A stretch of 64,000 nucleotides of DNA, from assembly GCA_020630615.1 (NCBI GenBank), contig JAHDBA010000005.1, positions 38,709-102,708 of the forward strand. Reading direction: 5' to 3'. A program made the position numbers and the translations under genes. The stretch is from Myxococcota bacterium (lineage in GTDB: Bacteria > Myxococcota > UBA727 > JAHDBA01). Of the stretch, positions 11,806 through 57,240 are shown piece after piece (position 1 is the first letter of the stretch; every line of letters begins with the position of its first letter). The notes under the pieces were generated by a model that made no database searches, was not told the origin of the DNA, and saw only the letters and a program-made list of their open reading frames with translations.

Positions 11806-14800
11806 ATGATCAATATAAAACATACTTTTGTAGGAAAATCGAGTCGAATAGAGTTCGTCTTACCACTCTTCCTTTCAATCGTATTTTTTGCGCCCATTTC
11901 GTTTGCTCAGTTTGCAGAGGGGCCCACTGGAATTACAATTCCTGATTCGTGCACAGATATCGATTCTTGGTGTCCGAACAGTGCGAATTGTACAGATCAC
12001 GACATGAGTGTTGATGGCAACCCTTTGACGATCACAGGCGGTGGTGGGATTGGCCAGTGTCATTGTGTTCTCGGAACTTCGGGTAGCGATAGTTTACAGA
12101 TTGATAATCCGCCAAATGCGGTTGATATCTATGTATGTTTCAACGCAGGAATCGATGTTAACTCGCTAATTAATGGTACAAGCCCGAGCGATATCACATG
12201 GCATATCAATGGTGGAGCTGGCGACGATGCATTAAGTGGATCGAACAATAACGACTTCATTGATGGTGCAGCAGGCGATGATGTCATCAATGGTGGAAAC
12301 GGAGACGATCAGATCACCGGCGGCGATGATAACGACGAGATTTATGGTGGAGACGGCAATGACTTCCTCGAAGGCAACGATGGGTCGGACACAATAGACG
12401 GTCAAGCTGGAGATGATGTTGTTTTGGGTGGACCGGGTAACGATGGAGATGTTTCGAATTGTGATCACAACCAAACCGTTCCTCCAGCAGGTCTCTTTGG
12501 TGGGCCAGGTACTGACAGTGTTCAAGGTGGTGATGGTGATGATTGTATCTTCCTTGGTGATGGTAATGAGAACTTTTACAATAATGTTCAAGGGAACCAA
12601 GGTGGCGGCTACGGCGGTGCTGGTAACGACGTTATTTATGGCGGTAGTGGCAACGATACGGTTGATGGTCAGTCTGGCAATGACATTGTAAACGGTGGTC
12701 CGGGCAATGATCTTGTTGGTGGCGGGACAGGTAACGATCATGTGAACGGCAATGAGGGGGTCGACACAGTGAATGGTAGTGGTGGCACCGATGAGTGTGT
12801 CGATATGGGTGATGGTGATCCCGACTACAGTTCAGAAGGATTTGGGGGCTGTGAACAGTTCACTTATGCGTCGATTGATAAGGTTAGATTGAAAGACCAA
12901 AATGGATCAATGCTGCTAGAATGGTCAACAGCCTCAGAAGCTTCAACTCTTGGTTTCAAAGTTATTGGGTATGATGCTTTGAATCGTGCACATTTAATTA
13001 CGGAATTTGTCCCTGCAATCCCAAATGGTGGTGGGGGCTCGGATTATCAAATCCATCTAACGGACAGATATGAGCGAATTGATATTCAGGAAATAGGTCA
13101 AAACAACTTTGGGAACAGGTTTTCTCTCAAGGTTCAAGAGCTTCAGCAAAACAATCGTGCGACAAAGGTTTACCAATCCTCTTCAATAAGTTCTGCTCGT
13201 CTCCAACCTGTCAAACATGAAAGAGTCATTGATGCGCTCGATAATCTTTCCCCGATTCATGAGGCCATTGTCGAGGTCAGCAATGAAGGGTGGATATCGA
13301 TATCGCCTTCAACTTTAGCACCGATTATGGGGTATAGCATTGAAGAAATTCAAAGAGCTGCGGTGGAAGGAAATCTACGAATAACTCTTAATGGTGAGTC
13401 GGTTGCTTACCGTGCGATTCCATCAACGGGGATCGAATTTTATGCAAGGAAACCGTCTTCTCTTTATCAAAACTATGATGCCTATCGAGTGGAGTTGCAG
13501 GAAGGGCGAAAGCTTGTTGATGGTGAATGGTTTGAGCTTAGTGCTACGAATACGATAGCGACCATGTCGGTGAATGAAAAATTTGAAGTCAATAATTTTG
13601 CAGGGACAGCGATCGCAAACTCCGCGAATCAGGATTATTGGTATTGGGCAGCAATCGCACGATCAGCGTCTGTTCCAGACTTTGAAACCGAACTTACCCT
13701 AACGCAGGATCCAACATCATCGGTTGCTCTCAATATTCTATTACGTGGTGCATCGGTTGCCTTGCACACCCGTCATCAGGTTGATGCTTATGTTGATGGT
13801 GTTTTGTTAAAAACTTTGACTTTCTCAGAAAAAGAAAGTGGCATTTTAGAGTTCGATGTTCCAAGAGAACTCATTCACGATAAGAAAGTTCATTTGAGTC
13901 TGCGCATGAGCACTTCCGCGAGTGCACAAAGCGTCGTCTATATTGATCGAATAAAAGCTAACTTTTCAAGTGCTGAGAACCTAGCTGCAGATGTCGTGCA
14001 TGGCACGGACGGTCATCACACCTTAAGTGTGACTGAAGGGGTTGCAGGTCGTATTGTTTCCGCAAGTGGAAACTATTTTGAAATTGGAGCAGACTCCACT
14101 CAACGAAGTATTCAACTTTCGGAATCTTTTGTCTGGTTGCCACTGAAAAAATCTATTGCTCAGTTTCGAGTGCGTCCTCGTCGCGTTGTTAATATTAGTA
14201 ATAGTGTTGAGCATCTAGTTGTAACGAAACGTGCTTTGGCGATAGAGGCCAATCAGCTCGCAGCGCATCGATCGCGTTCAGGGTTTCGTAGTCAAGTTGT
14301 CTATTTTGATGACATTGCGGACACCTTTGGTGCTTCTCAGAACGATCCCCGTGTAATCCATCGCTTGATTCGTGAACTGTCAGAGTCTTTAAAATACGTC
14401 GTCCTCTTTGGTAGTGGTAATTTTGACTACAAGAACCACTATGGTTTGGGTGCAGGTCATTTACCCCCAATGATGATTTCTTCGAGTGATGGAGGAATCG
14501 TTGTGAGTGATCAGCTTCTTGGTGATACGGATGGTGATCTTGAAATGGACGTTGCGATTGGTCGAATCCCAGTTGAAACGAAGGACGAGGCCCAAACCTA
14601 CATTACGAGTTTGATTGAATATGAAGAGAACCTAGCAAGCCGCAGTTATGGACCGATCGAACTTCTTGCAGATGCACACCGTGATTCGATTTCAGATTTT
14701 GACCGTGATATTGATGCCTTCTCCAGCCAAGTCAACGTTGATATTGATGTGGAGCAAATGTCAGTTGACAGCGTGTCAAGTCCCGAAGAGCTTTCGGACA

Positions 14801-15534
14801 TGCTTCAGGAAATGCTTCAAGAGAATCCAAGAGCCTTTGTCTACGCCGGACACGGTGGTATCGATCGTATCACAAAATCTGGGTGGCTATCACCAGAGCT
14901 GATGACTGAACTCCGCTCTCAAATGTCTTCTCCTCTACCCTTTGCGAGTTTGATGACGTGTCATGCGGGTTCTTTTGCGCATCCACGTGTGCGCGGCTTT
15001 GCCGAGGCGCACATGTTGGGTGAGAATCCATTTGCACTTGCGTGGATTTCTGCAGGTGCTGCAACGATTGATGTTGATAATCGTATTTTGGGTCAGGCAA
15101 TTATGAGGGAAGCAGGTTCAAATCTTGGAAACGCTCGGATTGGAGATTTAATGCGTTCAGCATTAGCGAGCACGATTGAGCGGGATGAAGAGCTTCGACA
15201 TAACCATCTTGCGTATAATCTTTTGGGTGATCCTGCGATGCTTCTGCCTCGGCGTCATGCGGGCAATACTTTGAATGCCTATGAAGCAAGAGAAATCCCA
15301 AGTGCAGGAGTGAGAGTTGACTCATTGTTGAGTGAACATAGTGTTGTGACGAACACCAATACGTTTGGTAACTTTGATGAGAAACTACACACATCAACGA
15401 TGAGTCAAGGCGTGGATCGAGGTTGTGCCACATCGTCATCCTCGCCATTTCTAACCTTGTTTGGATTTGCGCTTATCCTGTGGCGGCGTAATGCATGGCA
15501 GAATCAAAACGAATCGATAAAGCATTTTAAATAA
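11806..15534 (+). CDS. Secreted RTX-repeat / gingipain(C25)-like cysteine peptidase with C-terminal sorting-type tail
   Basis: N-terminal TM/signal. About 20 GGxGxDxUx nonapeptides (GGAGDDVINGGNGDDQITGGDDNDEIYGGDGND...) at nt ~12200-12800. C25-like block: DVAIGRIPVETKDEAQTYITSLIEYEE, then His in VYAGHGG and Cys in LMTCHAGSF at clan-CD dyad spacing. The C-terminus is GCATSSSSPFLTLFGFALILWRR. Confidence 0.6.
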   Translation: MINIKHTFVGKSSRIEFVLPLFLSIVFFAPISFAQFAEGPTGITIPDSCTDIDSWCPNSANCTDHDMSVDGNPLTITGGGGIGQCHCVLGTSGSDSLQIDNPPNAVDIYVCFNAGIDVNSLINGTSPSDITWHINGGAGDDALSGSNNNDFIDGAAGDDVINGGNGDDQITGGDDNDEIYGGDGNDFLEGNDGSDTIDGQAGDDVVLGGPGNDGDVSNCDHNQTVPPAGLFGGPGTDSVQGGDGDDCIFLGDGNENFYNNVQGNQGGGYGGAGNDVIYGGSGNDTVDGQSGNDIVNGGPGNDLVGGGTGNDHVNGNEGVDTVNGSGGTDECVDMGDGDPDYSSEGFGGCEQFTYASIDKVRLKDQNGSMLLEWSTASEASTLGFKVIGYDALNRAHLITEFVPAIPNGGGGSDYQIHLTDRYERIDIQEIGQNNFGNRFSLKVQELQQNNRATKVYQSSSISSARLQPVKHERVIDALDNLSPIHEAIVEVSNEGWISISPSTLAPIMGYSIEEIQRAAVEGNLRITLNGESVAYRAIPSTGIEFYARKPSSLYQNYDAYRVELQEGRKLVDGEWFELSATNTIATMSVNEKFEVNNFAGTAIANSANQDYWYWAAIARSASVPDFETELTLTQDPTSSVALNILLRGASVALHTRHQVDAYVDGVLLKTLTFSEKESGILEFDVPRELIHDKKVHLSLRMSTSASAQSVVYIDRIKANFSSAENLAADVVHGTDGHHTLSVTEGVAGRIVSASGNYFEIGADSTQRSIQLSESFVWLPLKKSIAQFRVRPRRVVNISNSVEHLVVTKRALAIEANQLAAHRSRSGFRSQVVYFDDIADTFGASQNDPRVIHRLIRELSESLKYVVLFGSGNFDYKNHYGLGAGHLPPMMISSSDGGIVVSDQLLGDTDGDLEMDVAIGRIPVETKDEAQTYITSLIEYEENLASRSYGPIELLADAHRDSISDFDRDIDAFSSQVNVDIDVEQMSVDSVSSPEELSDMLQEMLQENPRAFVYAGHGGIDRITKSGWLSPELMTELRSQMSSPLPFASLMTCHAGSFAHPRVRGFAEAHMLGENPFALAWISAGAATIDVDNRILGQAIMREAGSNLGNARIGDLMRSALASTIERDEELRHNHLAYNLLGDPAMLLPRRHAGNTLNAYEAREIPSAGVRVDSLLSEHSVVTNTNTFGNFDEKLHTSTMSQGVDRGCATSSSSPFLTLFGFALILWRRNAWQNQNESIKHFK

Positions 15535-15538
15535 AGCA

Positions 15539-15567
15539 AAGGGAGCATCAAGCTCCCTTGCATTTTA
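15539..15567. terminator. Bidirectional rho-independent terminator between convergent genes
   Basis: AAGGGAGC-atcaa-GCTCCCTT 8-bp stem followed by GCATTTTA. The opposite strand has a TTTGCTTTATTT tail. Confidence 0.55.
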
Positions 15568-15604: not shown

Positions 15605-16771
15605 TCATTCACACTGACTTCGTTCACACATTTTTTCTGCGCGCTCCCGAGAACTCTTTTCATAACTCCGAGTGCGATAAGGCTCTCTCAAGAGTTGGTG
15701 CCAAGTGCCAAACATATCATAAATAAATTCTCTCACCTGTGCGTCATCAAAACTCATGCTTTCCGTATAATAGCCCATCGCGTTGTCTTGGTTACCAATC
15801 CAAAAGTTTTCAATATGTCCTAGGCCGAGAACGTGCCCAAGTTCATGTGCATGGGTTTGAGAGTTCTCCCAATGTTTGGCTTCGATAAGATAAGCTCCAA
15901 GATCATACGAGCCCATTCCAGCGGGGTCGAGTGTTGTTCTGCCGGGGATTTCCTCACTCGCGCGTTCAGGGATATTTTCAACCATCAATCCTATTATCGC
16001 TCCCTCTGGGACTTGATCGATTGATGAAACATGACGAGTTTTCACTCGAGTTTTGACATCGGCGCTCACATTCGCGTCTTCGCCGTATCGCCCTTCGGCC
16101 AATGCAACGATTTCCCCAAAGGCATTCACGTTGAAAAAACGGCCGCCTTCTTCACTAAGTGGCCAGATTGAAATATCGTTCACTGAAAACTCATCACGAA
16201 TTTCAGAGCTTGGAAAGAAATCCGTCTGTCTTGGCCCCACAACATAAACATCGATACTTGCTTCAATGTTCATATGAATCTTTCCTGTAAGTGGGTTGGT
16301 ACGTAGTTCCGTCACAAAAGCTCTGGGTTTATGACGATCCTGTTCACAAATGTTCGGGGCTTCAATTTGAAATGTAACTTCGTCTCCCGTGTAGACCGCA
16401 ACACAATTCCGACCACCCATCAGTGGATGTGTTTCTTCACAATCAATAAGATAAGAAATATCAGGCAGGAGTGCATCATATTCTTGAATCAACTTGCCAA
16501 GTGCGCTCGCTGCAATCTTTTCAGTGCTTGAGCTAGCGACTTCGATGGTGTTCTCAATGTTACAGGCCTCATTCAACCCCTTCACCTTCAACCCGCTCAA
16601 CTTATCCCACCGAACAACATAAGCCTGCATGTCATGATTCGAGTAGCTTTGAATAACACCAATCTGTTGCGCTTCCTGGAGTGCCTCCCTCTGTTCTTGC
16701 TCACTGCCGTTCACAAGACGATCAAAAAGGACCTGCCAACGTTGGGTGGTTTGGGTGTCGATGCGTGCCAT
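15605..16771 (-). CDS. Metzincin-type zinc metalloprotease (HExxHxxGxxH)
   Basis: HELGHVLGLGH zinc-binding consensus followed by a Met-turn-like NAMGYY. No obvious signal peptide at the annotated N-terminus. Confidence 0.6.
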   Translation of the reverse strand: MARIDTQTTQRWQVLFDRLVNGSEQEQREALQEAQQIGVIQSYSNHDMQAYVVRWDKLSGLKVKGLNEACNIENTIEVASSSTEKIAASALGKLIQEYDALLPDISYLIDCEETHPLMGGRNCVAVYTGDEVTFQIEAPNICEQDRHKPRAFVTELRTNPLTGKIHMNIEASIDVYVVGPRQTDFFPSSEIRDEFSVNDISIWPLSEEGGRFFNVNAFGEIVALAEGRYGEDANVSADVKTRVKTRHVSSIDQVPEGAIIGLMVENIPERASEEIPGRTTLDPAGMGSYDLGAYLIEAKHWENSQTHAHELGHVLGLGHIENFWIGNQDNAMGYYTESMSFDDAQVREFIYDMFGTWHQLLREPYRTRSYEKSSRERAEKMCERSQCE

Positions 16772-16931: not shown

Positions 16932-17513
16932 ATGAGTTATGCACCATGGGTCTTTGAACAAACTCCACGAGGAGAACAGCAGTACGATATCTGGTCAAGA
17001 TTGCTTAAAGATCGAATTATGTTTTTGGGCACTGCTATCGATGATTCTGTTGCCAACATGGTTGTTGCGCAGCTCTTGTATTTAGAGGCGGATGATCCTG
17101 ACAAGGATATTACTCTCTATATCAATAGCCCAGGCGGCTCTGTAACTGCTGGGCTTGCCATTTATGATGCGATTCAATACGTGAGACCGAAGGTTGCGAC
17201 TGTTTGTGTTGGCCAATGTGCATCGATGGGTGCAGTCCTTTTGGCAAGTGGCGAAAAGGGAAAACGTTACATTCTACCTCATAGTCGAGTGATGATTCAT
17301 CAACCTCATGGTGGAGCCGGCGGAACCGCGATCGACATCGAGATTCAAGCCAATGAGATTCTTAAGTTGAAAGGTTTTCTGAACAGCATTATTCACCAAC
17401 ATACCGGCCAATCCCTATCGAGAGTTGAAGAAGACAGCGATCGCGACTTCTACATGAGCGCTCAAGAAGCTGTTGATTATGGAATTGTTGATGAGATCAT
17501 CGAGAGACGCTAG
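16932..17513 (+). CDS. clpP: ATP-dependent Clp protease proteolytic subunit
   Basis: Canonical ClpP sequence: [12 protein letters not shown], catalytic Ser in [13 protein letters not shown], and HQPHGG. Confidence 0.95.
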
Positions 17514-17551
17514 ATTCGTTTAGTATTCTTGACAGCTGGATAGAGGTAAAT

Positions 17552-18121
17552 ATGGCGTTCACATGGTTCAAGCGACTTTTCAGAGCTCAAGTATTGGGTG
17601 CACTCCAGAAAGGCCATCTGAAGGTGGTGGTGGACCCTAAAAAATATAAGTTGATCGAATATAAAATCACAGGTTCATGGTCCACCGAAGAACTTCAAAA
17701 TGCTGCATATCAAACATTTTTCCAGCTTAGTGAGCGATCTCGGCCTTATCGTTTGGAGCGTTTAGAAAGCATCAAACAAGGAGCCCGAGAATCGGCGTCT
17801 TTTACGGATGTGTTATTTAAACGGCGACAAAAATGGGTAGAACAGGCTGAAATGAATCTGCCCTCTGAAGAATTTCGTGGGCAAGCCGCACGCGGGAGTG
17901 TTCAGGTTTGGGTGAACGGAAATATGGACTTTCTACGGTGCAGTGTTGATGACATGGATCCAGAAGCAGTTTTACCCCTGGTACGCCACGCGCTTATCGC
18001 AGCCGAGAATCAATGTGAAGATCGATGGCGGCAGGTAATGCTCGAAGGTATGGACACTGACTACATGCTTGAAGGTCATGTCGAAGACCCCAGTGCTGCT
18101 ATCAATGAAGTGTCGGCTTAA
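17552..18121 (+). CDS. Hypothetical protein (189 aa)
   Basis: ORF with GAGGT RBS. No recognisable motifs. Located between clpP and the Cys-repeat giant. Confidence 0.45.
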   Translation: MAFTWFKRLFRAQVLGALQKGHLKVVVDPKKYKLIEYKITGSWSTEELQNAAYQTFFQLSERSRPYRLERLESIKQGARESASFTDVLFKRRQKWVEQAEMNLPSEEFRGQAARGSVQVWVNGNMDFLRCSVDDMDPEAVLPLVRHALIAAENQCEDRWRQVMLEGMDTDYMLEGHVEDPSAAINEVSA

Positions 18122-18254
18122 TTAAAAGTCTATAGAAATCAGCTGCATTCATCTTTATTCTCGATGAGAAGGGCTAAAAACATGCGTTCGTAATCAGACT
18201 TCGCTACTCTAAACATATGATACAAAATCATGCTGTCCAGAGTAGGTGTATGCG

Positions 18255-28714: not shown

Positions 28715-29722
28715 ATGCCGAAAGATCATAACCTGTCTTTGGATGCCAGTGCAGGCGGCAAGCTCGTTATTGCCGGCGAATATGCGGTACTTTTAGGGTG
28801 CGAAGCTTGGGTTATGCCGACCTTGGCAAGGGCCCATGTTCGAATCGAGACGATGCAGGCGAGCGCTTCTTCAGGACTGATGACACTGAAAAACTACAAG
28901 ACCCATCCACGAAAGAGCCCTCTGAGTAAGCATCTGATTTCAAAGTCAATTGAATGGGGTTGGTTGAATGAAAAAAAATTGTCATTGGATTACGAGTTAA
29001 CATTCGACTTTCAAAGTTCCGAGTTCACACATGGTGACACAAAGCTTGGTCTGGGTTCATCCTCTGCATTGACTCTTGCATGGGTAAGAGCTTTGAGGGC
29101 TTATCATGAATCTTTAAAAGACTCTCAACACCAAAAAAGATTCGAAAGTGAAGCCAAGCATGCGTATCAACTGCACGATTCTTTTGGCGGAGGCTCAGGA
29201 ATCGACATCGCACAGGCCTTATCCGAAAAGCCCATTCTTTTCTCAATGACACACGATTCCGATGGGAAAGTTCTTCGGCGAATCAAGGACGCTCCACCAT
29301 TGGCATTCCCTTGGCGCCCATTAACCTTCTTTGTTGGACACGCGCAAAACACACGTCCCTTTGTGAGGGCCTTTGAACATGCCTATCGTCATCAGAAGAA
29401 CAAAGTCGATACTGCGATTCGAGAAATTCGAGAAAGCTCTCAAGGAATGATCGACCTGGCCTTTCAGGGCGATGACTTCTCGCACTTTTTAGAGCATGTT
29501 TCTCGACATGCAGCTGCTATGTCCGAATTGGGAATGCATATTGATGTTGATATTGTGTCCCATGAACATCAAGAGATAATTCGATGGGCAAAGGCGCATG
29601 GGGGCGCTGCGAAACCCAGTGGTGCTGGTGGGGGCGACATCGCCTTGGCTTGGATTCCCCAAGAGCATTTAAGTTCAGCGCTATCCACCTGCCCACTCAA
29701 ACCCATGGAGCTCTTAAAATGA
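28715..29722 (+). CDS. GHMP kinase, probable phosphomevalonate kinase
   Basis: GHMP motif LGLGSSSALTLAW. Second GHMP kinase in the mevalonate cluster, distinct from mvk. Assignment is by context. Confidence 0.6.
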   Translation: MPKDHNLSLDASAGGKLVIAGEYAVLLGCEAWVMPTLARAHVRIETMQASASSGLMTLKNYKTHPRKSPLSKHLISKSIEWGWLNEKKLSLDYELTFDFQSSEFTHGDTKLGLGSSSALTLAWVRALRAYHESLKDSQHQKRFESEAKHAYQLHDSFGGGSGIDIAQALSEKPILFSMTHDSDGKVLRRIKDAPPLAFPWRPLTFFVGHAQNTRPFVRAFEHAYRHQKNKVDTAIREIRESSQGMIDLAFQGDDFSHFLEHVSRHAAAMSELGMHIDVDIVSHEHQEIIRWAKAHGGAAKPSGAGGGDIALAWIPQEHLSSALSTCPLKPMELLK

Positions 29723-30336
29723 AACCAATGAACGATGATGCTGCACATGAACTTGAACGGGATCGCGTCGTTTCTTCGGACGATGATCTTCTAATATGCG
29801 TTAACCCTGACGATGAAGTCATTGGGTACGAGCGTAAAGACCGTTGTCATAAGGGTGAGGGCCTACTGCACCGCGCATTCTCAATCTTTCTTTTTAATGA
29901 CGCCGGTGAACTTCTTTTACAAGAGCGCGACATATCCAAACTCTTATGGCCGAGTACATGGTCGAATACGTGCTGTTCGCATCCGCGTAAGGGTCAGAGT
30001 ATCGAAGAGGCAGCAGGTATTCGACTGCGCGACGAACTGAATTGTGAAGCGAGGCTGCAAAAGGTGTATACCTTTCGCTACCATGCGTCGTATCAAGATC
30101 GTGGTAGTGAGAATGAAATGTGCACCGTTCTTATTGGACACTTGAATCACACTCCCAACTACAATCGAAATGAGGTTTCGAGAATGAAATGGACGAGTGC
30201 TCAAGAACTCGAAGGCGAGCTTATTGCAAAACCCATGGACTACACCCCATGGTTTCGAATGGAGTTTCAAGAGTTGAGAACATCGTTTTGGCCGCAGATT
30301 GAAAAGGTGATTGCTCAAGGGAAGGGGAATTCATGA
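29719..30336 (+). CDS. idi: Isopentenyl-diphosphate delta-isomerase, type 1 (Nudix)
   Basis: HRAFSIFLFN...LLLQERDISKLLWPSTWSNTCCSHP matches the type-1 IDI catalytic core. Start ATG 29719 overlaps the upstream stop (ATGA). Confidence 0.8.
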   Translation: MKPMNDDAAHELERDRVVSSDDDLLICVNPDDEVIGYERKDRCHKGEGLLHRAFSIFLFNDAGELLLQERDISKLLWPSTWSNTCCSHPRKGQSIEEAAGIRLRDELNCEARLQKVYTFRYHASYQDRGSENEMCTVLIGHLNHTPNYNRNEVSRMKWTSAQELEGELIAKPMDYTPWFRMEFQELRTSFWPQIEKVIAQGKGNS

Positions 30337-31391
30337 ATACTTATCAGCGCTCGCTTCAAAAATGGGAGCATCCAATTGGGGTCGAGCTTCTACGGGATTT
30401 CCCCGCAGAGCAGAGTCGAAGGATGGAAGCGAACTCCGAGTGTGCCTTTGGCAACACAATATTAAGGGCCATGGCTCGAAGACATCTTGAGAACAAAGGA
30501 AAACTCTTACGCGCCCATTTACCCTTGTGGATTGGTGAAAACCTTGGAGGAGCGATTCAGCATGCAATGCACCTTGGTGTTGCATGTGAGTTGATGCACA
30601 ACGCAACACTTGTTCACGATGACATTCAAGATGGGGACACGCATCGTCGTGGTCAGCCCACACTGTGGAAGCGCTACGGTATTGCACAAGCGATCAATGT
30701 TGGCGACGGACTCTTTTTCTATGCTCAGAAACGTCTGCACGAGATTGATGACCCTGCTCTAAGCCTGGAACTCTCTAAACTTGTATCCTCCGCTTTGCTT
30801 TCTACAATTCAAGGTCAAACACTTGAACTTGATTTTCAAGAATGGAAATCCTCACTTGAAAGTTTAAAAACGAAGCAGGAGCAATTGGTGCCAACCTATT
30901 TTGAAATTGTACGTGCGAAAACAGGAGCTCTTTTTTGCGCCGCTTCGCTTGGCGGTGCCAAAATTGCAGGGATGCCCCAAGCACTCAGGGACACGCTTCG
31001 TGATTTGACGCTCGAGCTTGGAGAACTCTTTCAGGTTCAGGACGATTACCTTGATCTGGTTGGAGACAAAGGACGCACTTCGAAAGCAAATGATATCGCG
31101 GAAGGCAAGTTGTCCTACCCTGTTGCGCGAGCGTTGAGTCAATCCAATCTTGGGGATGCTTCGATGTCTGAGTTGATTGCGATACTTTCATTAAGCCGAG
31201 AACAAACTCGAAGTGAAGATCGAAGCAAAGCGCTTGAACTCTTGGAAGATTCGGGTTCGTTGAAAGATACTCAGGCATGGCTGCAAAGGCGAGTTGACGA
31301 TTTTGGTGAAAAAGCGTCCCGAGAATCAAGCTTTGAGCTCTTATTGGGTTTGGCTGAATACATGGTAGCACCTCTAGCCGATTTTCTCTAA
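30333..31391 (+). CDS. Polyprenyl diphosphate synthase (FPP/GGPP synthase family)
   Basis: First DDxxD LVHDDIQDGD and second FQVQDDYLD aspartate-rich motifs. 4-nt overlap with idi. Confidence 0.8.
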   Translation: MNTYQRSLQKWEHPIGVELLRDFPAEQSRRMEANSECAFGNTILRAMARRHLENKGKLLRAHLPLWIGENLGGAIQHAMHLGVACELMHNATLVHDDIQDGDTHRRGQPTLWKRYGIAQAINVGDGLFFYAQKRLHEIDDPALSLELSKLVSSALLSTIQGQTLELDFQEWKSSLESLKTKQEQLVPTYFEIVRAKTGALFCAASLGGAKIAGMPQALRDTLRDLTLELGELFQVQDDYLDLVGDKGRTSKANDIAEGKLSYPVARALSQSNLGDASMSELIAILSLSREQTRSEDRSKALELLEDSGSLKDTQAWLQRRVDDFGEKASRESSFELLLGLAEYMVAPLADFL

Positions 31392-31513
31392 AAGCACGGT
31401 GCAAGTTTGTCGATGTTGCTCGAGCTTCAATTCGATCGTGTAAAAGCTGCTCAGCGCCTTGTCGTTCGTCAGTGGTGAATACGCTTAATGAGCTGTCTTA
31501 AACGCTTGGCAAG

Positions 31514-32980
31514 TTGAATTGTGCGTGGGATGCTAAGGGTGTGAGTGAAGAAAGATCGAAACGTTCATCTAGGGTTCCAGGCTTTTACACTCAAGGCCGG
31601 GAGCAACGTTTTCGCGCGCTTGGTGCTGAAGGCATCCATTTTACCAAAGAAGAGAAATTAGCTCTTGACGAGGGTGGGCTGACGTTAAAACGGGCTGAGA
31701 ACATGATCGAAAATGTTCTTGGGCTTTACAGTTTGCCTTTTGGTGTCGCACTGAACTTTCGCATTGATCACGAAGATCTTTTTATTCCGTTGGTGGTTGA
31801 AGAACCGAGTATTGTTGCTGCGTGTTCAAATATTGCAAAGCTTAGCCGAGCGGGCGATGGTTTTATCACTTCGTCTGAAGCATCTGTTATGAAAGGACAG
31901 ATCCAAATACTTTTTAATGACGCTTTTGGGTTGAATACCTTTAAGCAGGCCTTTGAAAATGCAAAACCATCTCTTCTTGAGAGTGCCAATCGCTTGTGTC
32001 CTGGTTTAGTATCACGGGGTGGTGGTGTTCTCGCTCTGCGTTTTCGTACTCTTCCACCCAATGCCAGATCCAAGTACCATCAGGGTTGGAGCTCGCCAGA
32101 CACAATCATGGGAGTTGTGGAGCTTCACGTCGATTGCATCGATGCAATGGGCGCCAATATCATTAACAGTGTTTGTGAGGGCATGCGCTTCGAGCTCCAA
32201 CAACGCTTTAACATACAAACTCATATCGCGATTCTTTCCAATCTGGCCGATCTACGTTGTGCTGAAGCACGCGTCGAAATACCTCTTCACGCTTTAGCCG
32301 GAAAAGAATCCAAGGACTCAACGCCTGATGAGAGCCAACGCTATGTTGAAGGTTTGCAACAAGGACATCGAATTGTCTCTGCGTATGAAATGGCGTTGCG
32401 CGATCCCTATCGTGCTTGCACCCATAACAAAGGGATCATGAACGGCATTGATGGGGTTGCGGTTGCAACAGGGAATGACTGGAGATCGATTGAGGCTGCG
32501 GCACATGCTTATGCAGCATTATCAGGTCAATATACGACCTTATCACGCTTTCGAGTTTCAAGGGACGAGCAAAACTTGGAGTGCGAGTTACGAATGCCAA
32601 TGGCGGTTGGTACGGTAGGCGGATCCATTTTGGTTCATGAGGGTGTTCGTGCTGCGCGCGCACTCTTGGGGGCTAGGGCGGAAAAAGCGGGTGAACTTGC
32701 GCGGGTTATGGTGGCCGTCGGCCTTGCACAAAATATCGGTGCGCTTCATGCGCTTGCCGGTGAGGGGATCCAGCGCGGCCACATGAGCCTTCATATTCGT
32801 CAGGTTCTCCTTGAAATTGGTGCAGCGTCTCACGAAATATCAACACTCAAAGAGCAGTTGATAGCGACGGGAGAACTCAACCGTCAAGCAGCCCGAGCCG
32901 CCTTGAAGGCACTCAGAAATAAAGACTGCAAAGAACCGAAAGATAAGCTTGTGATGTCGAAGTTGAAGCGGGAAGGATGA
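31514..32980 (+). CDS. mvaA: HMG-CoA reductase, class II
   Basis: VPGFY..., DNMIENVLGLYSLPFGVA and PLVVEEPSIVAACSNIAKL match class-II HMGR. The 31514 codon is TTG. An alternative GTG at 31541 has an AAGGG RBS. Start is uncertain. Confidence 0.8.
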   Translation: MNCAWDAKGVSEERSKRSSRVPGFYTQGREQRFRALGAEGIHFTKEEKLALDEGGLTLKRAENMIENVLGLYSLPFGVALNFRIDHEDLFIPLVVEEPSIVAACSNIAKLSRAGDGFITSSEASVMKGQIQILFNDAFGLNTFKQAFENAKPSLLESANRLCPGLVSRGGGVLALRFRTLPPNARSKYHQGWSSPDTIMGVVELHVDCIDAMGANIINSVCEGMRFELQQRFNIQTHIAILSNLADLRCAEARVEIPLHALAGKESKDSTPDESQRYVEGLQQGHRIVSAYEMALRDPYRACTHNKGIMNGIDGVAVATGNDWRSIEAAAHAYAALSGQYTTLSRFRVSRDEQNLECELRMPMAVGTVGGSILVHEGVRAARALLGARAEKAGELARVMVAVGLAQNIGALHALAGEGIQRGHMSLHIRQVLLEIGAASHEISTLKEQLIATGELNRQAARAALKALRNKDCKEPKDKLVMSKLKREG

Positions 32981-32981
32981 G

Positions 32982-34001
32982 ATGGAGCCCGTATTTGAAG
33001 CGCCTTTAGTGCCTAAGCTTGCTGTCGGGTATGCACCGGGTAAGGTGATTGTCGGTGGTGAGCATGCGGTGGTCTATGGTCACCCTGCCTTTGCTTTGCC
33101 TTTACCTTTTGGGATTCGTGTCTTGACCACGGCGCAAACACTTCCGCGTTCGAACCCGCGTCCCTTGGAAGAACGATGCAAGGTTCAAAGCGACGCGATG
33201 GATATTCTGTCCCCAACTTCGCTTGAGCAGCTCCGGGGAACTTTCCCGGATGCGGTGTCTGCTTTTCGAAAGATTATTGGGTTTTGGAATCGCGGATATG
33301 AAGCCGATCATTCTCTTCACTTAAACTTTCGTATTGATGGCGATTTGATCCCTGCATCAGGTCTTGGGTCCTCTGCGGCAACTCTTGTTGCCCTTTATCG
33401 AAGTCTTGAAGCGATACGGCCCTTTCATCCTGAAATACAATGTGAGTCTGCTGTATTCGAGGCTGAAGCTGTTTTTCACGGCACTCCATCGGGGATTGAC
33501 CACTCTACGAGTATTCTCGGAAAACCATGTATGTTTCGCCGCAGTGGAAAAAAAATAGAATGCGAGGCGCTGCATTGTGCAAAAGAGCAACCTTGGCTTC
33601 TCGTGACACGGGCGAGGCAAAGTCGAACTCAGTTTAGTGTCGATCAGATCAAACGCCGATACCGTAAAGAGCCTATCCGCGTGTCGAAAGCATTTGATGC
33701 GATCGCGCTCCTTGTACTTAAAATGCGAGACAATTATCGTCATGCCCAACCCAAAGAACTTGGTTCTCTGATGAATGAGAATCACCGCATTTTGGAAGAT
33801 CTTGGACTTGTGTCCAAGGAAGCAGCAGCGCTGCATCCGATGTTGATTGAAAAGGGGGCATTGGGTGCAAAGGTCAGCGGTGCCGCAGGTGACAAATTAT
33901 GTTTATTGGCGCTCTTAAAACCTGAGCTTGATCCGAAAGTCATCACGCGAGAGCTTGAGTCAAAGGTTATGAATATTGAATGCCGATCATTTTCTGCTTA
34001 A
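32982..34001 (+). CDS. mvk: Mevalonate kinase
   Basis: GKVIVGGEHAVVYG N-terminal motif and GHMP ATP motif PASGLGSSAATLVAL. Start is 1 nt after the mvaA stop. Confidence 0.8.
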   Translation: MEPVFEAPLVPKLAVGYAPGKVIVGGEHAVVYGHPAFALPLPFGIRVLTTAQTLPRSNPRPLEERCKVQSDAMDILSPTSLEQLRGTFPDAVSAFRKIIGFWNRGYEADHSLHLNFRIDGDLIPASGLGSSAATLVALYRSLEAIRPFHPEIQCESAVFEAEAVFHGTPSGIDHSTSILGKPCMFRRSGKKIECEALHCAKEQPWLLVTRARQSRTQFSVDQIKRRYRKEPIRVSKAFDAIALLVLKMRDNYRHAQPKELGSLMNENHRILEDLGLVSKEAAALHPMLIEKGALGAKVSGAAGDKLCLLALLKPELDPKVITRELESKVMNIECRSFSA

Positions 34002-48164: not shown

Positions 48165-50726
48165 ATGCAAAGCCAAAAGAAGCCCTGGTTTCTCTGGGTG
48201 ATACTCACACTCTTGGGTATGATCGTCTTTCACCAATTGGGATGCGCATCAACACTTAGGGACTCGCTCCGACGTATTGAAAGCGACCATTGGTCTGAGC
48301 GCTACCTTGGGGATCATCCGCTCAATCGCAGCGTAGTCCTTCGAATTGACGAGAGCACTGTACACGACTTTGGTTGTCCACCCTATGATGAAAAATCGTG
48401 GAAGACACTGAACAATCAAATCATGGCTGCAGGCATTGAAAAAGTTGCGTTCTTTGGTCGCGAAAGAGCGTGGCATCAATCACTTAACAATCCAGCTTCG
48501 CTCGAGGTGTATTTTCTTCAAGCAGGGGAGACTATTCAAGATTACATTCAGCGATTGAGTAATTTGGAGTTAGGACAAAAGACTCATGCTACAAAGTCGA
48601 TAGAGCAGGATTTGAGTTTAGCCGAATCGATTCTTGACATGCGGGAGCGTGGCCTCGCTGATCTTTACGAAAGTTTAGAAATTCCGGGTTTGGCCCTGTC
48701 GATGTTGAACTCCGGTATTACCACTCAGCAGTCTTTTAAAAACTTTAACGAACCACCGCTCTTCATTGTGACTTCGGAATCCATGGCATGTTTTACGGGA
48801 CATGGAAGCCCGATGGAAGACCATCTCACACAATGGCTTAAACTCAAGCACCTTCATAAGTTAACTTTACCGGATCTGATTCATGGGACTTTACTCTATT
48901 TCTTGTTGATGAGTATTGCTGGAATGGCGCTCTTTGTATTCCCCCTTCATACACTGTGGAAGGAGTCCTTCTACTTCATCACACTGCTCGCTTCCTTCTT
49001 TATCGTGTCTGAGATTCTTTACCGTTTGCAATCAAACTATTTACCGATTCTTTCGGGTGCATTGACTTGGGTCACATTTCGAGGGCTCAGGCAACTTTTT
49101 GTAATGACGTGGCAAAGACGACTCTTTATTGCCTTCGTGAAGAGGACTCGCCCCTATTTGGAGGAATGGCAACGTGGCCGAGCGCAATGGAAAGAGCGTA
49201 GCTTTGAAGATAAACATCGCGAGATTCTCGAGTTTTTGAGCACACTAAGTGAACCGATTCACTCCCATGTTTTTCAGACGAATGAAGAGAGTATTCTTAC
49301 GCTAGATCAATGGCATCATCCAGATTCTGAGTTTGCCTCGGAGAATTATGAGCTTCAAAACCAACTTTTGAAAATGACTCGCGAGGGACGGCGAAAACTG
49401 AAATTCAATCGTGAAAGGCATTTGCGTTCCTATCTTTATGAGCTCAGTCTCCCTTCATCAACGATAAAAACCTATTGGCATATCGAGTGCAGTGGCACCC
49501 CAAACCACCAGCGCTCCGAAGAAGATGAAGATAAACTTTTGGGTAATGTTTTAAATATGATGATGTGGCTAAGCGATACGGAGACCCACGCCAGCGCGTC
49601 TCCCCCAAAGAGCTTTCGAGGGACGAACCAATTCAAAGACATTTTTGCGAATCCACTGGAAATGAATTTAATGACGCACTTGCTGGATCAGATCGAACGC
49701 GAGCACACAATTTTGGGTGAGTTTGATCTTGCATGCGCTTTGGTTTCTTTACGCGGTGTTGTCGGCTTTACCAACCCAGCATTCGATGCTCTTTTGAAAG
49801 ACGAGAACATCAATCGAGATGGAACGATTGACAAAGTGCTCATTGCGATGGGAGGGACATGGGTCGAACGAATCTTACGAAGGGCTTGGGCGGGGAGACG
49901 GGTTCAGTTTGAGATTCTAACTCCAAAAGGCACAAGTCTCGATATTCGTATACAACCCATTTGTCTGAATGTCGCACGGAATAGGATTCGCAAAGGAAGT
50001 GCCACATCTTTTCTGATGACTCTTCGCCAGGTCTCACGTATTGATCAAAGTCGAAGAGACCGCGCTCGCAATGCAACATATATTGTTCCTAAACTTCGCA
50101 ATTTGCTCTCAATCATGAAGATGTCGGGCGACATGCTAGGGATGAACATTCGTGCAAGTGCAAAAGGAGAGGAAACCAAAGCCCTTCGCTCGATTCAAGA
50201 TGTTCTTACGCGAAAGAGTAGTGTTATGGCGAGTCGCCTTGATCAACTTGAGGCAATCTCTTCATCCTTGATCGAGGGTCATGATGAAATTCGAGAACGG
50301 GTTTTTGTGGATATTCAGGATCTTGTCAAAGACTCCTTCCTTGATTTTCAGTCTCGCAAAGAAAGAGACTTGAACCTCAAACTTAACCTTGAGGAGAGCC
50401 AACTTGTGTCTCCAGTTCTTTGTGCCCCTCGCATTCTTCGCGATCTTCTTGTCGAAGTTTTTCGAAGTCTAGTCTTTCATCATGGCGACAATGAAATTTG
50501 TGTCGGCATCGGTGAAGAGTTGGGGACTGTCCACCTTCAAATAGAAACGCGAGTCGCCGATGGTGTTGTGAGTGATCTCCAAAGAGAGATAGGGACTCAA
50601 CGGGAAGACTTAAAAGAGCTGGTAGAAGCTTTCTCTGAATTTGAGATTGATGTCGAAATTATAAATGAGGGTCATCGACGTCTTTTTGATGCGCGCTTTC
50701 CAGTTTTGCGAGAGTTCCAGGAATGA
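48165..50726 (+). CDS. CHASE2-like sensor domain protein with 3-TM module and large uncharacterised cytoplasmic domain
   Basis: N-terminal TM/lipobox. RSVVLRIDESTVHDFGCPPYDEKSWKTLNNQIMAAGIEKVAFFG fits the CHASE2 N-terminal signature. A three-helix TM block follows at residues ~235-305. The C-terminal ~540 aa has only weak HisK-like hints. Confidence 0.5.
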   Translation: MQSQKKPWFLWVILTLLGMIVFHQLGCASTLRDSLRRIESDHWSERYLGDHPLNRSVVLRIDESTVHDFGCPPYDEKSWKTLNNQIMAAGIEKVAFFGRERAWHQSLNNPASLEVYFLQAGETIQDYIQRLSNLELGQKTHATKSIEQDLSLAESILDMRERGLADLYESLEIPGLALSMLNSGITTQQSFKNFNEPPLFIVTSESMACFTGHGSPMEDHLTQWLKLKHLHKLTLPDLIHGTLLYFLLMSIAGMALFVFPLHTLWKESFYFITLLASFFIVSEILYRLQSNYLPILSGALTWVTFRGLRQLFVMTWQRRLFIAFVKRTRPYLEEWQRGRAQWKERSFEDKHREILEFLSTLSEPIHSHVFQTNEESILTLDQWHHPDSEFASENYELQNQLLKMTREGRRKLKFNRERHLRSYLYELSLPSSTIKTYWHIECSGTPNHQRSEEDEDKLLGNVLNMMMWLSDTETHASASPPKSFRGTNQFKDIFANPLEMNLMTHLLDQIEREHTILGEFDLACALVSLRGVVGFTNPAFDALLKDENINRDGTIDKVLIAMGGTWVERILRRAWAGRRVQFEILTPKGTSLDIRIQPICLNVARNRIRKGSATSFLMTLRQVSRIDQSRRDRARNATYIVPKLRNLLSIMKMSGDMLGMNIRASAKGEETKALRSIQDVLTRKSSVMASRLDQLEAISSSLIEGHDEIRERVFVDIQDLVKDSFLDFQSRKERDLNLKLNLEESQLVSPVLCAPRILRDLLVEVFRSLVFHHGDNEICVGIGEELGTVHLQIETRVADGVVSDLQREIGTQREDLKELVEAFSEFEIDVEIINEGHRRLFDARFPVLREFQE

Positions 50727-53569
50727 TTCTCGATATTTTTCCAGACCAGGGATTAAGTTACACCATCTATTTGCCGGTGTTGATCGGGATATTCTTTTTA
50801 TGGTTGTGCAACGAAGCCTTTGGATGGCCGCGTGATGGATGGGTTGTTCCCGGTTATGTCGGTATGGTTCTTTTTACGAACCCAGAATCAGCAGCTTTGA
50901 TGATGATCGAGGCACTCTATGTTTATTATGCCGTTGTGCTTTTTTCGGAAATGGGTGCACGACTTGGTTTTTGGAACCGTTTTTTTGGTCGAGAACGTTT
51001 CTTTCTCTTTGTGATCGTTTCGATCCTCGTTCGCTATCTTTTTGAGCTATGGCTTTTACACCCTTCAACCTCTTGGTTGTCGACCTGGTTGAGTGAAGGC
51101 ACATCATCGCTTGATGCCTTTCACTCGATTGGTCTTGTTCTTGTGCCACTGATCGCAAACAGCTTTTGGAAATCGGGACCGGCCAAAGGCATGCTTCGGA
51201 CTCTCTTTTTGTTGGGCATCACCTATAGTGTGATTCGACTGGCACTCCAGGACCATACAAACTTCACGATTGAGTACTTTCGCCTAATTTACGAAGATAT
51301 TTCGATGCGCTTTGAATCGGGTGCGAAAGTCTATGTGATTCTCATCGTTGCGGGATACGTTGCAGCATGGACGAATTTGAGATGGGGTTGGGATTACAAT
51401 GGAATTCTAATGCCTTCATTGTTGGCTGTTGCAATGTTCTTCCCAATTAAAATTTTAGCGAGTCTGATTGAAGCGATAATCATTGCCTTTGCGTTTGGAT
51501 TGATTACGAAAGTCCGTCCATTCAATACAATTGCCTTTGGGGGCGGCCGGCAAATTTTAGTACTATACGCTCTTGAAGTGGGTATTAAATGGATCGCTTC
51601 AATCTTCTATCAGCCACTTTGGCCAGGAATGAAAGTGACAGACCTCTTTGGGTTTGGGTATGTGCTTCCAGCGTTGCTTGCAGTTAAGATTCTTCAGAAA
51701 CGCCAATTTGGAATTGTTATTGGACCGACAATGGTTTGCATTGTCCTTTCATTTGCTTTGGGAACTCTCACATCGATATCGGTGACTCCCTTCTTTGAAA
51801 ACGTAGACTTCAATATGCCAGACCCCAATGAACGTACTCTTGCAGAAGGATCACTCGTCAATGCATTGAGCATGTCGAAAGCAACCCGACCCAGCCAGGC
51901 CGAGATTGCCACATTCATAAAAGAGCCACTGGCATACCAAACTATCGCTCGACGCTTAACCGGATGGGTTTTGGGCGAAAGCCCTTTACCTACTTCGTGT
52001 CACGATCGAAGCGTTTCGCGACTGAAGCAGCGTTATGCCTATCAATGTGAGCGCTACTTCATCGACAACGACCACCCGTTGAATCAACATTGGTCCAGTT
52101 CCTTTAAAAAACAATCTTGGCTGCATATTCACCTCCGTGAAAAAAAAGTTGAAAAGGCGCGTTCGGGAAGCCCTGAACTCTTAGTGGCCGTAGGCGGAGA
52201 GGGGCCCCGACTCCTCGCTGAGCCTTATGGAGATGATGCCTCTCGCTTTGCCGCGCTCAAAGCATGTCTACGCGTCAATTGTGCAATGATTGTCTTTACG
52301 CCACGCGGTCCAGAGAATGAGTGGTCTTTCCGCAAGCAAGTGTTAACGTCGAAAACACCAATTGTAGCGTATAAAAACTCCTCAAAATCGCCAATACTTG
52401 AAGTCCATCTGAATGAAAGAATTCAAAGTGACTTTCAACTCACCCTTTTTGGAGATCTAAGTTCGGGCCAAAACAAGCAACTTGTCGAGAAGCTTGGGAC
52501 ACACTTTAGTGGTTCTCCATCGTCAAAGTTTCAAATTCTTTGGGACTTTATGCCTGAACGTTATCGATTTGATGGTCGCTTGGATGTGAAGCTTTCTGCT
52601 CGAGAGATGCGGGAGGTCACGACCCGAAAAAGCAATCGGCCACATTTGTCGAATATCAAAGAGTTTGACGCTTATGAAAATCGTAATACAGCCTCACTTG
52701 TGATTGAACCGATGATCAGCTGTATCGATACCTGGGCGTCCGAACGGTGTCGCATCAATTTTGATAGGGCTCAACATATCGGCCGACGTATGGGTCTACG
52801 CTCTGCCCAACTCCTTCGGCAGGAACCTTCAGGGCAGGACATGGTATGGGCGGTACACATGACTCGACGGGTTCGAGATCAACGTGATGATGAGAGTGTT
52901 CATTTTCTTTTCAATTACCATGCAAAAGCAAAAGGAAGGATCCTTATTGCGCACCACTGGCAAAGTGGTGATGTCCTTTCAAGTGCGATGAAGCGTTTTG
53001 AGGAGGATGAAGTCGAGGCGATACTTTGGACAGAAGGGGATGGTGCTACGAACCGCGCCAGTAGGCTTACTCTCGCTTTTACAAGTGCATATCGAAAACT
53101 ATATGGCGCACACGCAGACTACATCTTTATTGCACCAACGTGGGGCTACTGCGATTCAAAGAACATTTACGTGAACAACATGCGAGGTGGAAACCTATTG
53201 GAAGAATCGGCCACCTACCTCGCGGAAATCTTAGGCACATCGCCTGAGAACATGCTGAGCCGCACATGGGTCAAGGAGCCCTGTCGCGATAAGGATTGGC
53301 GCTACCATCAAAGTTATCGACTTTTACGAATCGCCAATTATCCACGCGTATGGGACCTATCCATCTCACATCAAATACTCACGAATATTCCTGTGCCCAA
53401 AACACCCTTCCTTCAGTCCTTATTGCGATTATCTGTACATGCCCAAGATCAAACCCAGAAAAGTGGATTGAAGGTTGAGGAAGACCCAAGCCATAACTCC
53501 AACGATCACGCTTTCCTAAACTTTTCTGCAGGGCCTTCCCCAGCAATACACAGGGGCAAAACGCAGTGA
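50723..53569 (+). CDS. Polytopic membrane protein with tandem-duplicated PgsC/CapC-like domain fused to ~600-aa uncharacterised C-terminal domain
   Basis: FGWPRDGWVVPGYVGMVLF...FFGRERFFLFVIVSIL...HSIGLVLVPLIANSF parallels B. subtilis PgsC (GIVPAGLVVPGYLGLVF...LYGRRKFAAML...GIGIIVPGLIANTI). A second copy lies at residues ~200-330 (GILMPSLLAV...GYVLPALLAVKI). 4-nt overlap with the upstream gene. Confidence 0.5.
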   Translation: MILDIFPDQGLSYTIYLPVLIGIFFLWLCNEAFGWPRDGWVVPGYVGMVLFTNPESAALMMIEALYVYYAVVLFSEMGARLGFWNRFFGRERFFLFVIVSILVRYLFELWLLHPSTSWLSTWLSEGTSSLDAFHSIGLVLVPLIANSFWKSGPAKGMLRTLFLLGITYSVIRLALQDHTNFTIEYFRLIYEDISMRFESGAKVYVILIVAGYVAAWTNLRWGWDYNGILMPSLLAVAMFFPIKILASLIEAIIIAFAFGLITKVRPFNTIAFGGGRQILVLYALEVGIKWIASIFYQPLWPGMKVTDLFGFGYVLPALLAVKILQKRQFGIVIGPTMVCIVLSFALGTLTSISVTPFFENVDFNMPDPNERTLAEGSLVNALSMSKATRPSQAEIATFIKEPLAYQTIARRLTGWVLGESPLPTSCHDRSVSRLKQRYAYQCERYFIDNDHPLNQHWSSSFKKQSWLHIHLREKKVEKARSGSPELLVAVGGEGPRLLAEPYGDDASRFAALKACLRVNCAMIVFTPRGPENEWSFRKQVLTSKTPIVAYKNSSKSPILEVHLNERIQSDFQLTLFGDLSSGQNKQLVEKLGTHFSGSPSSKFQILWDFMPERYRFDGRLDVKLSAREMREVTTRKSNRPHLSNIKEFDAYENRNTASLVIEPMISCIDTWASERCRINFDRAQHIGRRMGLRSAQLLRQEPSGQDMVWAVHMTRRVRDQRDDESVHFLFNYHAKAKGRILIAHHWQSGDVLSSAMKRFEEDEVEAILWTEGDGATNRASRLTLAFTSAYRKLYGAHADYIFIAPTWGYCDSKNIYVNNMRGGNLLEESATYLAEILGTSPENMLSRTWVKEPCRDKDWRYHQSYRLLRIANYPRVWDLSISHQILTNIPVPKTPFLQSLLRLSVHAQDQTQKSGLKVEEDPSHNSNDHAFLNFSAGPSPAIHRGKTQ

Positions 53570-57238: not shown

Positions 57239-57240
57239 AA

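Follow-up and report, generated by a model that had tools for sequence, protein, structure and literature searches.

Probable diverged MYXO-CTERM-type sorting signals on a C25 protease and a Cys-rich repeat protein of an uncultured low-GC relative of myxobacteria

Introduction

The MYXO-CTERM domain (TIGR03901 / TIGR03382; myxosortase core NF040914) is a C-terminal sorting signal of about 34 residues that is typically found on surface hydrolases and adhesins (PMC11980579; bioRxiv 10.1101/2023.06.07.544157). The cognate enzyme, myxosortase (MrtX, model NF040593; MrtC; or MrtP, model NF040674), is a glutamic intramembrane protease of the CPBP/Rce1 type; its prediction in 2023 (bioRxiv 10.1101/2023.06.07.544157) was followed by experimental demonstration in 2025 (PMC11980579). 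In Myxococcus xanthus, MrtX, which carries EExxxR and HxxxN motifs, needs the Cys for removal of the C-terminal helix, this invariant residue is presumed to carry a lipid, and the secretion system of type II (T2SS) brings the protein to the surface (PMC11980579); other lineages employ MrtC or, in Bradymonadales, MrtP (bioRxiv 10.1101/2023.06.07.544157). The domain is highly divergent and its lineage-specific forms co-evolve with the enzyme, so that membership needs review and custom, lineage-specific models (bioRxiv 10.1101/2023.06.07.544157). The prototype MYXO-CTERM protein is TraA, the kin-recognition receptor of M. xanthus, which belongs to the Cys-rich-repeat class (PMC11980579). Here we describe a stretch of 64,000 nucleotides of contig JAHDBA010000005.1 (hereinafter the window), in which two unrelated proteins, denoted A and B and encoded within 6 kb of each other, end in tails that we consider likely to be diverged sorting signals of the MYXO-CTERM type. 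Judging from homologous proteins, these tails very probably are homologous to MYXO-CTERM and work in the same way, although neither reaches the cutoff of a curated hidden Markov model (HMM) of this domain.

Results and Discussion

Architecture of proteins A and B

The features of the two genes and their tails are as follows (coordinates are those of the window).

11806..15534, + strand: gene for protein A, 1242 amino acids; RTX repeats, C25 peptidase and C-terminal sorting-type tail
Residues 1-34 of A: signal-peptide-like leader
About residues 88-330 of A: RTX Ca-binding repeats (PF00353, E 1.6e-25), followed by a middle region
Residues 804-1146 of A, nucleotides 14215-15243: complete Peptidase_C25 domain (PF01364, E 1.8e-45)
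15424..15534, + strand: tail A, the last 36 residues, C-ATSSSS-PFLTLFGFALILW-RR-NAWQNQNESIKHFK and stop
15424-15426, + strand: Cys1207 of tail A, TGT codon
15427-15444, + strand: spacer ATSSSS of tail A
15445-15483, + strand: hydrophobic segment PFLTLFGFALILW of tail A
15484-15489, + strand: Arg-Arg of tail A
15490-15531, + strand: polar extension NAWQNQNESIKHFK of tail A, 14 residues
15532-15534, + strand: stop codon of A
18246..21332, + strand: gene for protein B, 1028 amino acids from GTG; signal peptide, N-terminal domain, 24 Cys-rich repeats, Cys-rich linker and tail
About residues 60-230 of B (some 170 amino acids), nucleotides 18429-18941, + strand: N-terminal non-repeat domain, clade-specific
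21237..21332, + strand: tail B, the second copy, C-QTSSGQ-SLLVLCFALLSLLS-RR-QLLHLVNA and stop
21237-21239, + strand: Cys998 of tail B
21300-21305, + strand: Arg-Arg of tail B, followed by the extension QLLHLVNA (8 residues)
21330-21332, + strand: stop codon of B

Both tails consist of a Cys, a spacer of 6 residues, a helix of 13-14 residues that is free of charged residues in A as well as in B, and Arg-Arg; the helix of A contains a single Pro, at position 1 of the segment. The pattern of Cys, Ser/Thr-rich spacer, hydrophobic stretch and RR on both proteins had been recognized in the preliminary description of this DNA, which also placed tail A exactly, from the Cys1207 codon to the stop, and correctly identified the domains of the two proteins. 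The tail ends it quoted are incomplete, breaking off at ...NAWQ in A (10 residues missing) and at ...RRQ in B (7 missing), and 'giant' is a generous word for proteins of 1242 and 1028 residues.

Both proteins begin with signal-peptide-like leaders, which were assigned by eye, without a predictor: that of A ends in ...ISFA or, in the longer form, ...FLSIVFFAPISFA, in either case ahead of QF, and that of B ends in ...IALMLVMGVAPNLYA ahead of ICGD. The translation start of B is likely to be the ATG at 18255. Protein A, the exact sequence of which is present in a public protein collection as P0001, from an NCBI contig of 113,012 bp, resembles PorU and the gingipains, the C25 peptidases of the type IX secretion system (T9SS), in having a full-length Peptidase_C25 domain and a partial match to the PorU model NF033707 (136.8 bits, cutoff 420). 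Unlike these proteins, it lacks the T9SS C-terminal domain, in place of which it has the Cys-type tail, and carries RTX repeats fused at the N-terminus.

In protein B, the myxobacterial Cys-rich acidic repeat (TIGR02232 / DUF4215; 4.6e-212 over 24 stretches) occurs 24 times. The protein resembles TraA in its build, with a non-repeat domain at the N-terminus, Cys-rich repeats and a C-terminal tag of the Cys type (PMC11980579), whereas no traB-like partner was seen for B. The N-terminal domain of B has a counterpart in the orthologue encoded by a related contig (L084, positions 15858-16391; see below), with VTGYVPS and DGQWSDI...ECCGD conserved between the two. A word-index search of 5.8 billion proteins with this domain yielded no relative, just short generic-repeat matches, and likewise missed B itself and the L084 orthologue; no relative emerged from a scan of the JGI metagenomes either. 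A third DUF4215 protein of the window (39307-41469, - strand), with 3 copies of the repeat, a lipoprotein-like N-terminus (...LIFAISC) and a zinc-protease-like HEVTH motif, has no sorting tail at its C-terminus; thus, in this genome the repeat class can occur without the tail.

Tails of homologous proteins

Evidence on the nature of the tails comes from the homologues of the two proteins. Full-length homologues with the RTX plus C25 architecture are 26-28% identical to A, and all seven that were examined (P0019, P0024, P0034, P0043, P0094, P0124 and P0125) end in canonical MYXO-CTERM tails (GGCSVGW...RRRR; that is, G-C-[SA], a hydrophobic stretch and RRRR), such as ...EGGCSVGWTNRNTGGATLLLIGLALLIRRRRR. 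One member of a homologue cluster carries the JGI name 'MYXO-CTERM domain-containing protein', and its cluster mates come from a metagenome-assembled genome (MAG) of Polyangiales. When 1.84 billion representatives were searched exhaustively with residues 601-1242 of A, 172 relatives emerged at E<=1e-30; of the top 149 of these 172, at least 18 have a tripartite C-terminal tail, and the G-C-[SA] signature is present in every genuine one. The G-C-A of tail A matches this usual signature. A metagenome scan with the C25 region of A found relatives at 22-37% identity, with tail-like matches limited to one locus (L085), which has an RGR end and a Cys inside the hydrophobic stretch, and to three short, spurious-looking open reading frames (ORFs). 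Tail-bearing proteins, for which the preliminary description had proposed a genome-wide search, do occur in relatives.

The closest relative of A is P0246 (hereinafter A'), which is encoded in a 51-kb contig of GCA_020627505.1 (L084) and is 38% identical to A over the best-matched stretch and 29% overall. The GHG and TC-AG motifs, where the His/Cys dyad of C25 peptidases is expected, are conserved between A and this orthologue. The two loci share gene order, namely A', clpP, a 187-residue gene, B', clpX and lon, where B' is a DUF4215 protein of 988 residues that is 51% identical to B. As in the window, two unrelated proteins of L084 carry a tail: A' ends in ...SSCAQTSSMTWLSLIGCALFWRRRRD, which BLASTP aligns residue for residue with tail A, and B' ends in ...VSCQQLNESAWILLTMCPIYWRRRRTQV (the end also given as ...DVSCQQLNESAWILLTMCPIYWRRRRTQV). 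Both L084 tails keep the Cys, the transmembrane segment and a WRRRR cluster close to the end, and the Cys as well as its spacing from the helix are kept in 4 of the 4 tails of the two low-GC (guanine plus cytosine) genomes. No further tails were found on the additional contigs around relatives of Lon (L100 and L101).

In summary of the comparison with MYXO-CTERM itself, tails A and B share with it the tripartite design of a Cys signature, an uncharged helix and a basic cluster, the latter being just RR and short of the very C-terminus, and they terminate a hydrolase of the Sec-exported type and a Cys-rich-repeat protein, in keeping with the presence of MYXO-CTERM on several unrelated proteins per genome.

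Profile scores and chance expectation

In a scan of all ORF ends of the window for a hydrophobic 14-mer followed by a basic cluster, the combination with a Cys was limited, among real genes, to A and B; the remaining matches are a few ORFs without a Cys and/or short out-of-frame reads. As a control, 1.47 Mb of unrelated loci from many phyla were scanned, a Cys and a minimum ORF length of 150 residues being required. Of the seven control matches, three are canonical MYXO-CTERM tails, one is a PEP-CTERM tail and three are spurious, which by our own arithmetic gives a spurious expectation of approximately 0.13 per 64 kb, against the two tails observed (Poisson P about 0.008). The pattern of two tails therefore exceeds chance.

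A tail HMM built from 23 canonical tails, none of them from the window, was run on 4549 ORF ends of the window and all loci. Below its three training sequences, the top match was tail A (12.6 bits, E 0.026), followed by a PEP-CTERM tail and then by tail B (9.8 bits, E 0.2). The intervening PEP-CTERM tail, ...VPEPATMLLLGLGLVGLAGFRRKFKK, belongs to a control locus of an uncultured 'delta proteobacterium' (L013, + strand ORF ending at about 5847), and its position between A and B indicates that the helix and basic cluster alone carry much of the profile score, which is not specific. Positive controls barely pass the curated model TIGR03901.2 (cutoff 20 bits), with 21.2 bits for the tail of P0043 and 20.5 bits for that of an S8 protease from a further related locus (L082), a narrow margin that fits the view of the model's author that the domain diverges by lineage (bioRxiv 10.1101/2023.06.07.544157).

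Host lineage

The GC content of the window is 46.7% (45-47% for the host), and that of L084 is 44-46%. The best matches of the window's Lon are 52-57% identical, and the named ones (47-55% identity) come from Myxococcota or 'Deltaproteobacteria' MAGs, Aggregicoccus and Vulgatibacter. The ClpP protein of the window shares 84% identity with its L084 counterpart, 76% with the one from L082 (GCA_030431455.1) and about 62% with those of other phyla; of the loci retrieved, L084 and L082 come closest by both ClpP and Lon. The L082 genome is GC-rich, visibly so in contrast to the window host, and shares the clpP-clpX-lon arrangement with the window; just upstream of its clp-lon cluster lies the S8 protease mentioned above, the canonical MYXO-CTERM tail of which passes both curated models. 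These protein identities suggest that the window comes from a relative of bacteria with MYXO-CTERM proteins, one that is uncultured and has an unusually low GC content. The low GC content makes it plausible that Gly and Arg, which have GC-rich codons, were replaced in the tails by Ser/Thr and Asn/Lys.

The order of clpP, a gene of about 187 residues, clpX and lon (window 16932-25479) is found also in the closest relatives by Lon, L084, L082 and L100; the product of the small clpP-adjacent gene of the window gives a weak YbaB-like match. In both low-GC genomes the DUF4215 gene sits between this small gene and clpX. The ClpX of L084 is absent from the ten best ClpX matches despite its 84% identical ClpP.

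Proposed processing and export

Under the MYXO-CTERM interpretation, and by homology with the M. xanthus system, each protein would be exported by Sec through its N-terminal signal peptide, after which the C-terminal helix would hold it transiently in the inner membrane, with the RR cluster (plus K/H) on the cytoplasmic side. The conserved Cys just outside the helix would then be lipid-modified, the helix would be cut off by a myxosortase, that is, a glutamic intramembrane endopeptidase of the CPBP/Rce1 type whose gene would lie elsewhere in the genome, and a T2SS would carry the anchored protein to the cell surface. In this scheme, A would end up as a C25 cysteine protease that is tethered to the cell surface and bears Ca-binding RTX repeats, and B as a Cys-rich repeat protein, adhesin or receptor-like, tethered there as well. 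The architecture of the tails, their homology and conserved place in orthologues and the signal-peptide-like leaders are observations, and the lipidation, the cleavage, the enzyme and the route are predictions drawn from homology with M. xanthus.

The preliminary description had likened the tails to MYXO-CTERM signals, and this likeness is supported by the canonical tails of the orthologues, the conservation of the tails in synteny, the score of tail A at the threshold of TIGR03382 and the affiliation of B with the TraA-like Cys-rich-repeat class. As for the dedicated enzyme that it envisaged, an intramembrane protease still appears to be the right kind of protein, whereas rhombosortase, archaeosortase and exosortase, which it named, are the wrong families, a myxosortase of the CPBP/Rce1 type being expected instead.

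Evaluation of alternative explanations

Several observations weigh against the assignment of the tails to MYXO-CTERM. Curated scores fall short: TIGR03382, the MYXO-CTERM sorting domain model, gives tail A 14.8 bits with its extension and 15.8 bits when trimmed at RR, just below the cutoff of 15.85; TIGR03901.2 matches neither tail; tail B matches no curated NCBIfam sorting-signal model at E<=10; and the A' and B' tails of L084 match no MYXO-CTERM model; B and both L084 tails lie below every curated model. The tails also depart from the standard form. The basic cluster is RR alone rather than the usual RRRR(R) and is followed by 14 (A) or 8 (B) extra residues, which add K/H; both tails lack a Gly-rich lead-in as well as the GCGC motif, there being no second Cys beside the first; and the hydrophobic segment of A begins with a Pro, a residue that MYXO-CTERM helices usually do without. 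The sample from this genome amounts to just two tails, both within the 64-kb window, and the placement of the host rests on protein identities of just 52-57% (Lon) and 76-84% (ClpP). Finally, no CPBP/PF02517 protein, myxosortase, other sortase or T2SS gene was found in the window, where Pfam and NCBIfam matches of the large ORFs were examined and all ORFs with multiple transmembrane segments were scanned for EExxxR, FxxxH and HxxxN. This absence is uninformative because mrtX is usually unlinked to the genes of its substrates.

The main rival explanation is that the tails are plain, uncleaved inner-membrane anchors facing the periplasm, relics of MYXO-CTERM in which processing by myxosortase has been relaxed or lost. 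The eroded look of the window tails compared to those of the orthologues, with two Arg, extra residues and sub-threshold or absent HMM scores, would be compatible with such decay, as would the lack of a sortase within the 64 kb. However, the Cys would be expected to be lost first in a relic, and it is strictly retained in all four low-GC tails, together with its spacing from the helix, even though the A proteins of the two genomes are 29% identical; for this reason, we regard this explanation as improbable. Furthermore, the inner membrane would be an odd site for a large RTX/C25 protease or a disulfide-rich protein with 24 repeats, and the L084 orthologues retain the full WRRRR end.

Still less probable is the possibility that the tails are read by another system, such as rhombosortase (GlyGly-CTERM), exosortase (PEP-CTERM), the MrtJ, MrtS or MrtA enzymes of JDVT-, Synerg- and CGP-CTERM, or an undescribed enzyme. 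The tripartite design is common to all these signals, and the last three also share with tails A and B the invariant Cys and a predicted enzyme of the same superfamily; in addition, tail A' of L084 weakly resembles GlyGly-CTERM (12.4 bits, cutoff 15.5), and a PEP-CTERM tail is interleaved with A and B in the tail profile ranking. Yet the window tails contain none of the diagnostic motifs, and no such model matches them even at E<=10, while the orthologues carry MYXO-CTERM specifically. Each candidate was rejected in turn: GlyGly-CTERM for lack of the GG motif and of a TIGR03501 match (cutoff 15.5), PEP-CTERM for lack of the PEP motif and of a TIGR02595 match, LPXTG for lack of its motif and of any model match, and JDVT-, Synerg- and CGP-CTERM because the DP inside the helix, the invariant intrahelical Pro within a Leu-rich stretch of a short tag and the archaeal CGP, respectively, are all absent, with no match to NF033191, TIGR04564 or TIGR04288 at E<=10. 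The chances are slimmest for the view that the tails are coincidental hydrophobic C-termini with no shared function. Their shortness, low complexity and modest individual E-values (0.017-0.2) speak for this view, but two were seen where about 0.13 spurious matches per 64 kb were expected, the tails are positionally conserved in syntenic orthologues, and the canonical signal is present in 7 of the 7 full-length family members examined. Coincidence is effectively refuted by the orthologues.

The MYXO-CTERM assignment thus remains the one that we favor, and a further elaboration of it can be put forward tentatively. The window and L084 might represent a rare, low-GC (45-47%), deep-branching relative of Myxococcota in which the signal has drifted to a distinct sub-type, C-[AQ]-x-T-S-S without the Gly-rich lead-in and with a W/S-RR end, which the curated models do not see and the enzyme of which would be a myxosortase of a subtype distinct from MrtX, MrtC and MrtP. 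We consider this elaboration rather doubtful.

Other features of the window

Downstream of tail A, the 70-nucleotide gap that separates gene A from the convergent gene at 15605-16771 contains the following element.

15539..15559, strand not assigned: 8-bp GC-rich hairpin between convergent A (+ strand) and 15605-16771 (- strand)

This hairpin probably is a terminator shared by both convergent genes and shows where gene A truly ends on its 3' side. The convergent gene encodes a protein of 388 residues with a HELGHVLGLGH motif, a faint Matrixin match and no obvious signal peptide; the matching position in L084 holds just an ORF of 114 residues.

Elsewhere in the window, an apparent mevalonate-pathway operon (27719-34001, + strand) encodes diphosphomevalonate decarboxylase, a GHMP kinase, a NUDIX protein, a polyprenyl synthetase, HMG-CoA reductase and a second GHMP kinase. 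Since the ORFs 28715-29722 and 29584-30336 overlap by 139 nucleotides, the start of the NUDIX gene probably lies further downstream. Five consecutive large ORFs (853, 948, 848, 391 and 1684 residues; 48165-62295, + strand) are tightly packed or overlapping and have almost no family matches, the sole one covering two membrane stretches of 50723-53569 that are CapC/PgsC-like (Pfam 1.3e-32; the NCBIfam PgsC score is below cutoff). The protein of 1684 residues has a signal-peptide-like start, and the whole region is a possible uncharacterized cluster for the cell envelope or polymer synthesis. A tRNA-His (GTG) at 26006-26081 (- strand) is the single Rfam or ARAGORN match in the window.

Implications

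Under the interpretation favored here, the two tails are an ordinary, diverged example of an already known system, found in an uncultured low-GC relative of myxobacteria, and open no new mechanistic question. They illustrate the drift of a signal in a low-GC genome, where Gly-/Arg-rich segments give way to Ser/Thr- and Lys/Asn-rich ones. If the distinct sub-type outlined above were real, the taxonomic and sequence range of the myxosortase system would be extended. The more immediate value lies in annotation: the curated MYXO-CTERM models would miss A, B and probably other such proteins in this uncultured lineage, and counting them would need a lineage-specific profile. For the biology of the organism, A and B are best read as surface-anchored, myxosortase-dependent proteins, namely a C25/RTX protease and a Cys-rich repeat protein, respectively.

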